This document shows positions 1-24,382 of a stretch of DNA of 32,325 nt, in pieces. Every line of letters starts with the position of its first letter. Position 1 is the stretch's first letter. Below the pieces are notes generated by a model. It ran no database searches. It had not been told where the DNA came from and worked only from the letters and a program-made list of their open reading frames with translations. A program made the position numbers and the translations under genes. The stretch spans positions 1 to 32,325 of the forward strand of contig JAUNPO010000003.1 in assembly GCA_030536665.1 (NCBI GenBank), given 5' to 3'. The stretch is from Pseudomonadota bacterium. GTDB lineage: Bacteria > Pseudomonadota > Alphaproteobacteria > RF32 > CAG-239.

Positions 1-104
1 TCCACCCGAGAGTGGAATTATTGACTTTAGGGGTGTTTTCTAGACACCACAGACAGAACGCCTGTCTGTATTTTTAGTATAGCGGGGGAGAGAGGGAATG
101 TAAA
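1..104 (-). promoter_or_regulatory. Promoter plus 5' (target) half of a C4-like structured leader, truncated by the window edge
   Basis: Minus strand: TTTACA(104-99)-17bp-TATACT(81-76), then hairpin ACAGACAG/CTGTCTGT, hairpin GGTGT-CTAGAAA-ACACC, TAAAGT, small hairpin TCCAC/GTGGA. Same element order as the leaders at 14707 and 23694. Confidence 0.6.
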
Positions 105-366: not shown

Positions 367-570
367 ATGGCAACAGGAACAGTTAAATGGTTTAACTCTA
401 AAAAAGGTTATGGATTTATCCAGCCTGACAACGGTGGGGCAGATGTTTTTGTTCACATCTCAGCGGTTGAAAAAGCCGGCATGAGAAGCCTGAATGAAAA
501 TGAGAAAGTATCTTATGAGTTGATTACCGAAAAAGGCAAGACTTCAGCCGGAAATCTGAAGTTGGCCTAA
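367..570 (+). CDS. cspA: Cold-shock protein (CspA family)
   Basis: GTVKWFN, KGYGFI (RNP1) and VFVHISA (RNP2) motifs; AAGGA RBS. Confidence 0.95.
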   Translation: MATGTVKWFNSKKGYGFIQPDNGGADVFVHISAVEKAGMRSLNENEKVSYELITEKGKTSAGNLKLA

Positions 571-14590: not shown

Positions 14591-14678
14591 GGAGAGTTGG
14601 CAGAGTGGTAATGCAGCGGATTGCTAATCCGTCATCGTGAATAACGATGCACAGGTTCGAGTCCTGTACTCTCCGCCA
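14591..14678 (+). tRNA. tRNA-Ser (anticodon GCU)
   Basis: GGAGAGTTGGCAGAGTGGTAATGCAGCGGA-TTGCTAA-TCCGT, long variable arm, GGTTCGAGTCC, CCA end. Confidence 0.95.
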
Positions 14679-14706: not shown

Positions 14707-14735
14707 TTGACTATTTTCCGGAATTAAAATAACAT
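14707..14735 (+). promoter_or_regulatory. Sigma70-type promoter driving leader A
   Basis: TTGACT-17bp-TAACAT, about 7 nt before the first leader hairpin. Confidence 0.7.
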
Positions 14736-14741
14736 CCTTTT

Positions 14742-14920
14742 TGCAGCGGCTGATTACCGTTGTGAGGTTTAGAACCCTCTTAAAAGTTTTCTGTTAATCA
14801 GATGTAAAAAACTGCCTTTTGGCTTATGGCTGGAAGGCAGTAGAATATGTTGAATATACTGCACTATTACTTTTAATAGGTTCTAACTTCCAGTCTCCTT
14901 TCATCAGGGAGGCTTTTTTG
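14742..14920 (+). ncRNA. C4/CI-like antisense RNA leader module, copy A
   Basis: Two 5' hairpins with target TTAGAACC and TTAAAAGT. Cloverleaf 14828-14895 (P1 GGCTGGAAG/CTTCCAGTC, P2 GCAGTA/TACTGC, P3 CTATTA/TAATAG) carries ACTTTTAA and GGTTCTAA. Terminator-like hairpin at 14892-14920. Confidence 0.7.
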
Positions 14921-14949
14921 TTTTATTCTATGCAAAATATGAGGAAGTT

Positions 14950-15621
14950 ATGAAAAAAAGTGTTTTGTTTTTGATGTGTTTTTTGTGTTCCTGCCGCTCG
15001 ATAACTTATCAGGACGTTAATCCGCTTATTCAGCCGAATGCCAACCTTTTGCCGGCTATGGAGAGTATTGTCGACGTCAGTAATCTGGAGGCGACTTACA
15101 CGGTCAGTTCCTATGCCGGGACGACCAACAATTTCGGGACGACGTTGGGAAATACAAATTGGGCTCAGACAACGGCTATTTCCGGCGTTTCATATAAAGA
15201 TCCGCGGGTTCAGGATGTTATTAATGTTTTCAACAAAGAAGTTAAGGAAAACATCACATCGCCTTATGGCGCTAAGAAAGGGTATATTGTTCTGACATTG
15301 GGATACAGAGGGGTGGATCAGTCGTTTATTTATCCGTTTGTGTCTTTGTTTAGCCTTGGAACCATAAATTTCTTCGGTTTTCCGGGAGATGAGGTGAAAC
15401 AGTCCTTGGAGGTTGAGGTCGAAATCCGCAATAACAACAAGGAGCTTGTCAAGCGTTATGTTGAGAATGTTATAGATACACAGTATGTTGCCATGTATTG
15501 GGGATATAGTAAAGACAATGTCTGGAGAAAAGTTGCGGCAGACAATATAAAACAGGCTTTGCAAAAAATCAGGGACAGAATTAACAGTGATGCCGCCGAA
15601 ATTAAAAAGAAATTGAAATAG
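14950..15621 (+). CDS. Putative lipoprotein
   Basis: MKKSVLFLMCFLCSC lipobox-type signal; GAGG RBS; internal hydrophobic segment. Confidence 0.75.
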   Translation: MKKSVLFLMCFLCSCRSITYQDVNPLIQPNANLLPAMESIVDVSNLEATYTVSSYAGTTNNFGTTLGNTNWAQTTAISGVSYKDPRVQDVINVFNKEVKENITSPYGAKKGYIVLTLGYRGVDQSFIYPFVSLFSLGTINFFGFPGDEVKQSLEVEVEIRNNNKELVKRYVENVIDTQYVAMYWGYSKDNVWRKVAADNIKQALQKIRDRINSDAAEIKKKLK

Positions 15622-15670
15622 GGACAAAAGCCCCGGAGAGGTCAAATATTTCCGAGGCTTTGCTTTTGGG
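15609..15670 (+). repeat. 62-bp direct repeat, copy 1 (gene 3' end plus bidirectional terminator)
   Basis: 58/62 identical to 17039-17100. Confidence 0.9.
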
Positions 15671-15708: not shown

Positions 15709-16866
15709 TTACAAAGGATTGCTTTCAGGTGAAAGCAGTGCAATATAGCCGGCGTAAGCGTAAGTCTGTCCCCATTTTTTCTCGGAGGTATTCGTGATGA
15801 TTCCGAGCTTTATAAGGCGGTTGATTGAGCTGATAATTGTCGGGCGGGCAAGATTGATTTTCTTTTCAATTTCAGCAACGGTTAAAACCGGCTTTTGTTC
15901 AAATTGTTGCAATATTTCTAAAGCAGACGGATGAGCGCGACCTAAATCTTGCAGCTTATTTTCATCTTCAGCAAAAAGTTTTTGAATTTTGAGAATCGTT
16001 TTTCTGGCATCATCAGAGGTTTCAATAATTCCCTCCAGGAAGAAATTAAACCAGTTTTCCCAGTCGCCGTCATAACGGACATTGTTTAGGTATTCATAAT
16101 ATAATGAGCGGTTTTTCTTAAAAAATAAGCTAAGATAAAGAAACGGTGATTTTAAAATTCCTTTAACACATAAAAAGAACGTGATCAGCAGACGTCCCAA
16201 TCGGCCGTTGCCGTCTAAAAATGGGTGGATGGTTTCAAATTGCACATGAATCATTGCGGCTTTAATCAATGTAGGAATGTTATCTTCTTTATTCATAAAG
16301 ACTTCCAACTGTCCTAAAATATCCATCAGTTTATCCGGCGGACAGGGAACAAATCTGGCATTGCCCGGTCTGGTGCCGCCAATCCAGTTTTGTGAAGAGC
16401 GGAATTCTCCCGGCAGTTTGGTCTTACCTCGGGAATTTTTGAGCAAAATAGCGTGAATTTCCTTAATTAATCGCAAGGATAAGGGGAAGTTGTCATTAAT
16501 TCTTCTAATGCCATAATCCAGGGCAGTAACATATGATGACACTTCCGAAGCATCAGCAACGGGAATTCCTTGTGTCTGACTGGCTTCGTATTTCAGTAAA
16601 TCATCTAAAGTAGATTGCGTTCCTTCTATTTGAGAGGACAACAGCGCTTCTTTACGGACATACATATAATTGATAATCGCCGGATTAGGAACTGTTGAAA
16701 TAACGCCATTTAGGGCGCCAATCGCCTGATTAGCTTTTTCTAACAGAGGAGATATGGCTTCCAAATCAACAGTCGGCTTTGGTGGCAAGACATTCGGGAC
16801 ATATGCCTGATAGCTCTCGGAGCTTAGGGAACATTTAATCAATTTTCCTTGAATACCTCTTTGCAT
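15709..16866 (-). CDS. Fic family protein (class II) with probable C-terminal HTH
   Basis: Canonical HPFLDGNGRLGR motif; N-terminal SSQIEG autoinhibitory motif; GGAGG RBS. Confidence 0.93.
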   Translation of the reverse strand: MQRGIQGKLIKCSLSSESYQAYVPNVLPPKPTVDLEAISPLLEKANQAIGALNGVISTVPNPAIINYMYVRKEALLSSQIEGTQSTLDDLLKYEASQTQGIPVADASEVSSYVTALDYGIRRINDNFPLSLRLIKEIHAILLKNSRGKTKLPGEFRSSQNWIGGTRPGNARFVPCPPDKLMDILGQLEVFMNKEDNIPTLIKAAMIHVQFETIHPFLDGNGRLGRLLITFFLCVKGILKSPFLYLSLFFKKNRSLYYEYLNNVRYDGDWENWFNFFLEGIIETSDDARKTILKIQKLFAEDENKLQDLGRAHPSALEILQQFEQKPVLTVAEIEKKINLARPTIISSINRLIKLGIITNTSEKKWGQTYAYAGYIALLSPESNPL

Positions 16867-17038: not shown

Positions 17039-17100
17039 GAAATTGAAGTAGGGACAAAAGCCCCGGAAAAGTCAAATATTTCCGGGGCTTTGCTTTTGGG
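17039..17100 (+). repeat. 62-bp direct repeat, copy 2 (contains terminator hairpin)
   Basis: AAAGCCCCGGAAA...TTTCCGGGGCTTT; matches 15609-15670. Confidence 0.9.
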
Positions 17101-23693: not shown

Positions 23694-23722
23694 TTGCAAT
23701 AATCATGATGTTATGTTACGTT
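23694..23722 (+). promoter_or_regulatory. Sigma70-type promoter driving leader B
   Basis: TTGCAA-17bp-TACGTT with TG extension, about 7 nt before the first leader hairpin. Confidence 0.6.
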
Positions 23723-23728
23723 TTTGTT

Positions 23729-23935
23729 TAAGCGGCGGAGTTTTGCTGCTTAGGGCGTCAGAAACCCTTTTAAAATAAACAGTCGCCAAGCATAGCGACT
23801 TAAAACTATATGCCGATTTCTGTCATGGACGGATGTCGGCTAAATAAGGTTACGGCCAAATAAGCCGAGCCGTTGTTTGTTTATTTTATACGGTTTCTGA
23901 ACATCCGCCCGCCTTTATCAGGTGGGTTTTGTTTT
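23729..23935 (+). ncRNA. C4/CI-like antisense RNA leader module, copy B
   Basis: Two 5' hairpins with target TCAGAAACC and TAAAATAAACA. Cloverleaf 23827-23910 (P1 GGACGGATGT/ACATCCGCCC, P2 CGGCT/AGCCG, P3 GCCGT/ACGGT) carries TGTTTATTTTA and GGTTTCTGA. Terminator-like hairpin at 23907-23935. Confidence 0.72.
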
Positions 23936-23959
23936 AACTAGAACGAAAGGATGTTTAGA

Positions 23960-24382
23960 ATGAAAAAAGTATTTTTACTTTTAACTATTGGTGTATTTGC
24001 TGGTTTTCTTACGGCTTGTGCTACAATCATGAGGGAAAACAGTCAATCTATACCAATTAAATCAAATGTAGAAAAAGTTAATATAAAAATTACCAATAAA
24101 GTGGGAGAGCTTATTTTTGAAGGCCAAACACCGACAACATTAACTCTTAAAACTTCGGGCAAGAGCGGATATTTCAATCCTGAGAAATATACGGTTGTTG
24201 CTTCCAAAGACGGGTATCAGACACAAACGACTATCATTGACTGGCATGTCAGCGGTTGGTATTATGTTGGAAACCTTGCTTTGGGCGGTTTAATTGGATA
24301 TTTGATTGTCGACCCAATAAGCGGAGATATGTATTATCTGGATGAAGAAGTTAATTTAAATATGTCTCCTGTTCAGAAATAA
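23960..24382 (+). CDS. Putative lipoprotein (PEGA-like, beta-rich)
   Basis: MKKVFLLLTIGVFAGFLTAC lipobox; CATI..Q.I.I.S, GQTP and C-terminal GGLIGYLIVDP pattern; AAGGA RBS fits ATG 23960. Confidence 0.8.
   Translation: MKKVFLLLTIGVFAGFLTACATIMRENSQSIPIKSNVEKVNIKITNKVGELIFEGQTPTTLTLKTSGKSGYFNPEKYTVVASKDGYQTQTTIIDWHVSGWYYVGNLALGGLIGYLIVDPISGDMYYLDEEVNLNMSPVQK

Follow-up and report, generated by a model that had tools for sequence, protein, structure and literature searches.

The window, the stretch of 32,325 nucleotides that was analysed (G000:C201:1-32325), begins at a contig end and opens on its minus strand with an element of 104 nucleotides, termed copy C. The preliminary description had read at this place a TTTACA-17-TATACT promoter, a hairpin about 6 nt behind it, a second hairpin with the loop CTAGAAA, a TAAAGT segment and a small hairpin, and each of these parts was found as follows.

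76..104, minus strand: promoter, -35 box TTTACA (104-99), 17-nt spacer, -10 box TATACT (81-76), matching at 10 of 12 positions; the paralogues keep the -35/-10 register upstream
49..69, minus strand: hairpin 1, ACAGACAG-GCGUU-CUGUCUGU, 6 nt past the -10 box, at or near the RNA 5' end
32..48, minus strand: hairpin 2, GGUGU/ACACC with loop CUAGAAA; site a (CUAGAAAAC, 43-35) lies in and beside the loop
24..30, minus strand: site b, CUAAAGU; its complement b' (ACTTTAG) lies on contig C176
1..16, minus strand: hairpin 3, X1 UCCACU paired with X2 GGGUGGA; its last base is the contig end

The stretch of copy C folds with a minimum free energy of -22.5 kcal/mol (z -2.53), a value reached equally well by 4 of 200 shuffled sequences, and it holds one promoter-like site against 1.7 expected in shuffles. 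Taken alone, the promoter match and the fold barely exceed chance. The stretch is real because it recurs across the genome, which has 14 others like it at E <= 7e-10 and a degenerate one at E 1e-3. An open reading frame, divergent from copy C at a distance of 260 nt, encodes 67 aa (367-570, plus strand) and looks by eye like a CspA-type cold-shock protein.

Since position 1 of the window is the contig end, the left flank of copy C is not directly readable. The flank had been predicted to carry, on the minus strand, a cloverleaf with TTTCTAG-like and ACTTTA-like antisense segments, followed by a terminator and a solitary gene. No sequence exists to the left of the window, but both segments, GTTTTCTAG and ACTTTAG, are present on the plus strand of a separate contig, C176. 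The start of C176, CTCGGGTGGA, overlaps the end of the window's minus strand by 10 nt. It is followed by hairpin 4, by a hairpin GACUG-AUACUUUAG-CAGUU which holds b' (ACTTTAG), by a' (GTTTTCTAG), by AGCTCCAC and by the terminator CTCTCC..GGAGAGTTTGTTTT. An RBS and the expected single gene follow: AAAGGAGCTT is succeeded by an ATG at C176:125 opening a gene of 301 aa, which is solitary because the next gene is convergent. The cloverleaf has the form of a three-way junction on a long stem and is not a tRNA; Rfam scans of the window and the leaders returned neither a tRNA nor any other match at junctions of this type. X2 of copy C also contributes the 5' side of the stem that closes this fold, which is Xcc1-like as described below.

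A search of the genome for the pattern b'-then-a' returned C176 and one other place, which is the window's own a/b on the opposite strand. Duplex energy likewise ranks C176 first among the partners for the window's 5' half (-19.7 kcal/mol; runner-up -14.9). The interrupted copy on C135 reaches -20.2 with C176, but it already has a 3' half, and its hairpin 3 differs. We infer the join of C201 and C176 from the short overlap and this unique complementarity, not from a sequence read through it. The same layout is found in all 13 complete paralogues of copy C's subtype. The 301-aa product gives a sub-threshold Pfam match to Lcl_C (E 0.0031, 18.2 bits, cut-off 34.9), and has neighbours in the ESM Atlas that bear Lcl_C, which we take as a lead only.

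Two further copies, A and B, lie complete on the plus strand of the window.

14707..14949, plus strand: copy A, complete, sole one of its subtype, hairpin loop TTAGAAC; 34.4 bits with model R1 (14743-14940)
14707-14712 and 14730-14735, plus strand: promoter-like TTGACT and TAACAT of copy A, 17 nt apart; RNA from about 14743
14769-14776, 14780-14787, 14869-14876 and 14879-14886, plus strand: sites a, b, b' and a' of copy A
14884-14891, plus strand: anti-SD TAACTTCC of copy A; terminator to 14924; SD region GGAAGTTA at 14943-14950
14950-15621, plus strand: gene behind copy A
23694..23959, plus strand: copy B, complete, type 2, hairpin loop TCAGAAA; leader RNA about 23730-23935
23694-23699, plus strand: promoter-like TTGCAA of copy B; hairpin 1 from 23730
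23758-23766, 23771-23780, 23879-23888 and 23892-23900, plus strand: sites a, b, b' and a' of copy B
23827-23918, plus strand: Xcc1-like core of copy B, RF02221 at 32.2 bits, below the cut-off
23899-23906, plus strand: anti-SD GAACATCC of copy B; terminator to 23935; SD GGATGTT at 23949-23955
from 23960, plus strand: lipoprotein-like gene behind copy B (ORF 23951-24382)

The leader family and the genes behind it

Copies A, B and C had been taken for the same 5' half. They do have a common architecture, but their sequences differ, and BLAST gave no link of A or B to C. The further claim of a dispersed genomic family is borne out: a leader RNA of about 180 nt, with its own predicted promoter, occurs at about 48 loci in 1.94 Mb, approximately one copy per 40 kb. 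Three subtypes can be distinguished, and the window holds all of them. Type 1, to which copy C belongs, has 16 loci (C201 and C176 counted once, one degenerate copy included), type 2, with copy B, has 31 loci of which 25 are complete, and copy A is unique. The locus count is approximate, because the genome is a draft (229 contigs, 93% complete, 7.5% contamination) and several copies are located at the ends of contigs. A search with model R1 at E <= 0.001 was positive in 20 of 24 other genomes of the bacterial family, with 1 to 26 matches each, and in none of 16 genomes that represent other families in the order and class. Exact matches to a 19-mer of hairpin 1 number 12 in the record "uncultured Azospirillum sp. 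isolate UMGS63", and an unrelated record has a single one; such uncultured Azospirillum gut records we take to belong to the uncultured alphaproteobacterial order RF32.

Behind most type 2 leaders (22 of 31) lie genes of a single family, encoding cysteine-rich secreted proteins 258-339 aa long, while 2 of 31 precede small lipoprotein-like genes, one of them at 23960-24382 of the window, and the remaining 7 are interrupted or unparsed. The same cysteine-rich family lies behind 7 type 1 leaders, C176 and the degenerate C162 counted; behind another 7 are genes for small proteins (78-101 aa) that match HTH models below threshold, and 2 are disrupted. The cysteine-rich family has about 30 members behind leaders and an Lcl_C-like end. 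Pfam searches gave only sub-threshold HTH matches on four downstream proteins, and one sub-threshold Lcl_C match with three other weak ones on three more. In other genera the leader stands ahead of HTH-like genes and of one pilin-like gene, the names being read from the sequence. The gene behind leader L083 (genome G016, another genus) has, by eye, an N-terminus like a type IV prepilin signal.

Ahead of five of the cysteine-rich paralogues (C25:6111, C25:14453, C162:4713, C163:2341 and C175:1073) another segment stands in place of the terminator 3' arm and the usual RBS. This segment brings an RBS of its own and carries a strong promoter-like site (TTGATT or TTGAAT, 17 nt, TATAAT). Judged by these features the five paralogues seem to bypass the leader lock, and the inserted promoter-like segment suggests that the standard copies depend on the leader promoter.

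Fold, covariation and copy-specific addresses of the leader RNA

The RNAalifold consensus of 13 type 1 copies consists of hairpin 1, a long stem made up of a:a' and b:b' that encloses hairpins 3 (X1:X2) and 4, and the terminator. Over 33 sequences from 15 genomes, 97.3% of the cells are paired compared with 79.8% in shuffles and 39-50% for slid partners, in a structural alignment (A2) that is biased towards the model's structure, having been fitted to it. Changes on both sides were found in 26 of the 45 pairs, a number matched by 0 of 500 shuffles, and they are spread over helix b:b' (6/6), a:a' (4/9), hairpin 1 (7/8) and hairpin 4 (4/5). Helix a:a' is paired in 99.3% of the cells. Within the consensus fold, the short GGUG:CACY helix has zero pairs changed on both sides in this alignment. 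G-U pairs are frequent, for example in 14 of 33 sequences at pair 1-21, which fits an RNA on the leader strand. The idea that hairpin 1 is a DNA operator of the HTH-like proteins was dropped, as its stem covaries between genomes in 7 of 8 pairs.

An alternative pairing, X2:X3, is also conserved. X2 is the 3' arm of hairpin 3 and X3 comprises the bases directly after a', so that their pairing closes a three-way junction of hairpin 4 and the hairpin that shows b' in its loop. Pair 84-214 of this helix occurs as UA in 19 sequences, CG in 10, GC in 3 and otherwise in 1; pair 82-216 occurs as GC in 17, AU in 7, GU in 3, CG in 2 and otherwise in 4. The covariation of X1:X2 is inferior, pair 65-84 being AU in 20, GC in 5, CG in 2, UG in 1 and other in 5. 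All of 7 isolated 3' halves are predicted to fold as the closed three-way junction. The X1:X2 hairpin of type 2, with about 13-15 bp, is long and much stronger than X2:X3, which has 1-2 mismatches there; by eye, the X3 change is non-compensatory in three copies.

Each leader copy bears its own a/b pair, matched by a'/b' in its 3' half. The 5' halves of 12 of 13 type 1 copies find their best partner in the cognate 3' half (mean -20.6 versus -10.1 kcal/mol); in type 2 this holds for 25 of 25, with a tie in one identical pair (-27.0 versus -13.4 kcal/mol). A genome search restricted every a+b combination to its own leader, two duplicate pairs excepted, and yielded no orphan keys, that is, no a+b or b'+a' combination outside the leaders. 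The two sites reassort: the same b is joined to a different a in C52/C53, C74/C102, C135/C160 and C97/C185. Between type 2 copies, 62% of positions differ in b, 55% in b' and 32% in a and a', compared with 15% in the remaining leader. In 30 type 2 pairs that are less than 8% different in the rest of the leader, the difference in b remains 60% and that in the other helices 2-8%. In type 1 the stem of hairpin 4 is variable as well (entropy 0.77 versus 0.94 for b), and we propose no recognition role for it.

A recent pair of copies in another genome, L084 and L088 of G021, illustrates how such differences are placed. These near-identical leaders stand before near-identical HTH-like genes; read by eye, they have 2+2 compensating changes in a/a' (CTCAAAAAC/GTTTTTGAG versus CTAACAAAC/GTTTGTTAG) and merely 3 changes across the other approximately 160 nt.

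Every complete copy has an intrinsic terminator about 20 nt ahead of the RBS. X3 overlaps the 5' arm of this terminator and is at the same time complementary to the SD region, with AGCTCC:GGAGCT in type 1, GAACATCC:GGATGTTC in type 2, TAACTTCC:GGAAGTTA in copy A of the window and CAACTCCT:AGGAGTTG in another genus. X3:SD was the longest complement in 7 of 11 leaders, the search windows choosing other short words in 4; a twelfth leader (C176) was not parsed by the pattern. A terminator and an SD-masking helix would compete with an alternative helix, all of them being conserved by covariation. In the minimum-energy folds all 5 leaders examined contain a:a'/b:b', X1:X2 and the terminator, and when the transcripts were extended to the start codon the SD was paired in 4 of 5. 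With the folds locked and the SD paired, the predicted default state looks OFF at two levels. In-silico masking of a/b or a'/b' gave no clear ON fold: masking of a/b freed the X2:X3 stem in 1 of 6 leaders while the SD remained paired. Therefore, thermodynamics does not show the ON state.

Relation to sRNA-Xcc1, c4 and other known RNAs

At the Rfam gathering thresholds the window contains two tRNAs only (2244-2330 and 14591-14675), and the tRNA model has no match in the leaders. No Rfam 15 family covers the leader element. On full copies, searches at E <= 1 and E <= 10 gave sub-threshold matches to sRNA-Xcc1, together with chance microRNA-type matches on an unrelated nearby palindrome. C4 (RF01695), IsrK and c4-a1b1 gave none at E <= 1 over 7 complete-copy loci, nor at E <= 10 over L004 1050-1400. 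The model of sRNA-Xcc1, RF02221, has 22 matches in the genome at 21.9-35 bits (31.3 bits for L004), all in register with leader 3' halves, and none of the 22 reaches the gathering cut-off of 53 bits. As a control, 2 of 14 other genomes had any match at E <= 1. When 12 loci of other genera in the bacterial family were scanned with RF02221, no match reached E <= 0.1, and model R1, run with filters off on 12 genuine Xcc1 loci, gave none at the right strand and place (best E 0.15). With matching this weak and one-directional, homology of the leader 3' half to Xcc1 is plausible but not proven.

The likeness extends to the structure. Both RNAs have the three-way junction, whose closing stem P1 covaries in the leaders, and when the two are aligned in register they also share a hairpin with conserved UAAUA...GAAUAA, a variable-loop hairpin and a single-stranded UUUUnAG (UUUUGAG-like) joiner. 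Genuine Xcc1 loci were sampled at >= 53 bits, a score found in 24 of 151 genomes of the phylum, and 12 loci were read. As in the leader family, an upstream hairpin presents a in its loop and is followed by b. Complementary 7-nt words lie upstream in 12 of 12 loci and as two separate words in 9 of 12, compared with 27 and 2 of 132 non-cognate combinations. Around the SD they were found in 9 of 12 and as two separate words in 6 of 12, compared with 21 and 0 of 132. These counts come from an exact-word test, which was used because the duplex-energy test of a1b1/a2b2 was noisy in the GC-rich flanks. With sites both upstream and around the SD, genuine Xcc1 has the layout of the P1/P7 c4 RNA. No terminator follows directly after the RNA in the Xcc1 loci read, whereas the leader family has one. 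In addition, no a2/b2 sites were detected in the leader family: the duplex of b'a' with the 50-60 nt downstream is no better for cognate than for non-cognate partners, either in type 1 (-7.1 versus -7.1, 6 of 14 complete copies caught) or in type 2 (-5.8 versus -5.9, 20 of 25 caught).

In phages P1 and P7, Citron and Schuster reportedly described in 1990 a c4 antisense RNA with a1 and b1 upstream and a2 and b2 at the icd ribosome-binding site. The mature P1 c4 RNA, like the CI RNA of P4, is released from its leader by RNase P processing. P1 and P7 are heteroimmune, since their c4 recognition sequences differ and do not cross-match, and the leader copies differ likewise. The family resembles c4 in that a structured antisense RNA lies in the leader of the controlled operon, with two recognition segments matching upstream sites of the same transcript. 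It differs in lacking a2/b2, in having an intrinsic terminator and an anti-SD as output, and in its position, not in a prophage immunity region but in about 48 chromosomal copies before secreted-protein, lipoprotein and small HTH-like genes. In P4 immunity the CI RNA, with seqA and seqC, is likewise an antisense cut from a leader that has an upstream complementary site, and the outcome is premature termination. That termination is described as factor-dependent and P4 has the downstream site seqC, whereas the leader family has an intrinsic terminator and no downstream site. Classical attenuators follow the trp-type 1:2 / 2:3 / 3:4 logic, which is matched here by the exclusive pairings X1:X2, X2:X3 and X3:SD or terminator, kept across subtypes of different sequence. 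Unlike those attenuators, the family has no conserved leader peptide, and a copy-specific long-range helix rather than a ribosome seems to make the choice. A leader peptide in type 2 was considered and rejected, as the ATG opens frames of varying length between copies (by eye).

sRNA-Xcc1 was reportedly described by Chen et al. in 2011 as trans-acting. Its setting comprises Xanthomonas integron cassettes, prophages and genomic islands, and it lies directly upstream of, and co-oriented with, symE in Xanthomonas cassettes or an ORF6N gene in APSE phages. Relatives in integron cassettes are also described in a recent preprint (bioRxiv 10.1101/2025.06.18.660453). The role of C4 in the phage P1/P7 immI region is treated in PMC8198154 and the c4 and c4-a1b1 motifs are catalogued in PMC2864571. 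Within the accessible portions of the full-text literature on sRNA-Xcc1, on c4-a1b1 and on sRNA-Xcc1 together with C4 antisense, nothing like the leader family was found.

Proposed gene gating by the leader and competing explanations

We propose that the minus strand of window positions 1-104 is probably the promoter and 5' half of a gene-gating leader RNA of the c4 / sRNA-Xcc1 design class. In the proposed mechanism, the leader would be transcribed from its own promoter, the 5' half presenting a in a hairpin loop together with b, and the tRNA-sized 3' junction carrying b' in a hairpin loop together with a'. Pairing of a:a' and b:b' would close the junction and keep X2 in hairpin 3, the terminator would form, and X3 would cover the RBS of read-through transcripts, resulting in an OFF state at two levels. 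Pairing of X2:X3 would instead tie up the terminator arm and the anti-SD and turn the gene ON, the choice being set by whether a/b is free. The likeliest key would be the copy's own RNA acting in trans, its processed 3' half competing for a/b on nascent transcripts, which would give each gene a private feedback loop. We favour this key because no other was found in the genome and the addresses are hypervariable.

The lack of a key RNA encoded elsewhere in the genome equally makes room for a purely cis structure, and the main rival to the address model is indeed a leader acting only in cis as an attenuator, whether riboswitch-like, protein-binding or temperature-sensing. There a:a' and b:b' would be drifting structural helices, and a common signal would be read elsewhere, for example at the conserved hairpin 4 loop (UAAUAUAUUGAAUAA) or the junction, so that all copies would respond together. 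We consider this doubtful, yet a possibility to be taken seriously. The whole-leader minimum-energy fold is self-contained, the genome has no separate key RNA, the loop of hairpin 4 and the junction keep their sequence while the stems vary, and the alternatives X1:X2, X2:X3 and X3:SD are those of a classical attenuator; moreover, the hairpin 4 stem of type 1 varies about as much as a and b. Against it, a and b of type 2 are about 10 times more variable than the other helices even among near-identical paralogues, and the recent paralogues of G021 differ chiefly in a/a', as antisense recognition loops do. Genuine Xcc1, with the same core, pairs those loops with a second site at the RBS.

The own promoter and the intrinsic terminator could also belong to a free-standing gene for a trans-acting sRNA with targets elsewhere, the gene behind it being expressed independently, and the reported title of Chen et al. 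(2011) does call sRNA-Xcc1 trans-acting. This is improbable, since the standard copies have only about 20 nt, and no promoter, between the T-tract and the RBS, the complementarity of anti-SD and SD is kept by covariation between subtypes, and no copy's a+b or a'+b' was found outside its own leader. The five paralogues that lack the terminator 3' arm carry an inserted promoter-like segment, which also argues against independent expression. We regard as very improbable a DNA-level element, either the end of a mobile cassette or an attC-like single-stranded recombination site with its repeats kept for a recombinase. Such an element would suit the many dispersed copies, frequently at contig ends, the Xcc1 relatives in integron cassettes (bioRxiv 10.1101/2025.06.18.660453), and the variable inverted repeats of conserved shape, which resemble attC sites. 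Against it, the many G-U pairs of the sense strand would become A-C mismatches in its complement, the order is invariably promoter, element, terminator, RBS and gene in a single orientation, and the anti-SD and terminator logic is meaningful only as RNA.

Within the gating mechanism that we prefer, the strongest version is that each of the about 48 leaders is a private RNA lock with its own processed RNA as sole key, giving a self-sustaining ON/OFF switch for every secreted-protein gene; we put this forward as speculative and rather unlikely. If it were true, it would amount to an RNA-based, sequence-addressed phase variation of the cell surface without DNA rearrangement, in which paired mutation of a/a' and b/b', or a reshuffling of a and b among the copies, would create new addresses. 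Phages and mobile cassettes are known to use c4-type antisense leaders as immunity devices present in a single copy. The leader family would be this design rebuilt, with a terminator and anti-SD output and no downstream target, and multiplied in the small genomes of an uncultured family of gut alphaproteobacteria, its copies differing almost solely in two short paired address segments. If the addresses act in trans, one cell would contain a natural set of dozens of orthogonal RNA switches, which would bear on surface variation in gut symbionts and be of interest to synthetic biology. The Rfam model of sRNA-Xcc1 covers just the 3' core of this longer regulatory unit and misses the leader-family branch.

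Several other repeats were observed near the leaders. A MITE of about 266 bp with the terminal inverted repeats ACCTAAAATATCCCCTTACAG... sits in the b' hairpin of leaders. In G000 it is present as three full copies (C25:14120-14385, C75:2067-2332 and C175:1141-1406), as single ends at C40:20208, C133:11416 and C135:11326, and as variant ends in C62 and C108. Eight of the nine exact ends in the genome are flanked by a type 2 or type 1 leader and the ninth (C133) by an X2-like word. The a' behind the MITE of C175 mismatches its own a, and hence the MITE with its flank may have moved by recombination between leaders. The leader promoter of the type 1 copies C115, C204, C161 and C13 is immediately preceded by a further conserved repeat, about 60 nt long (...CAACCAGCGGCGAACTT...CCCGCGGGG.CTCCCCGC), which is also present inside the disrupted gene behind the C115 copy.

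The idea of a DNA-uptake sequence, as in Neisseriaceae, was rejected, as the genome has no such over-represented word. It does contain 12-mers like CCTCCCCTACCTTAGGGGAGG, about 30 in all, a sign of one more dispersed family of short palindromic repeats. In the window, a 42-nt inverted repeat (2173-2272, 74% complementary) adjoins the tRNA gene 2244-2330; one arm resembles the 3' part of the tRNA, so that it may be a partial tRNA duplicate. Two direct repeats of 62 nt (15609-15670 and 17039-17100), 94% alike, flank the minus-strand ORF 15709-16866, and both hold the terminator-like palindrome AAAGCCCCGG...CCGGGGCTTT.
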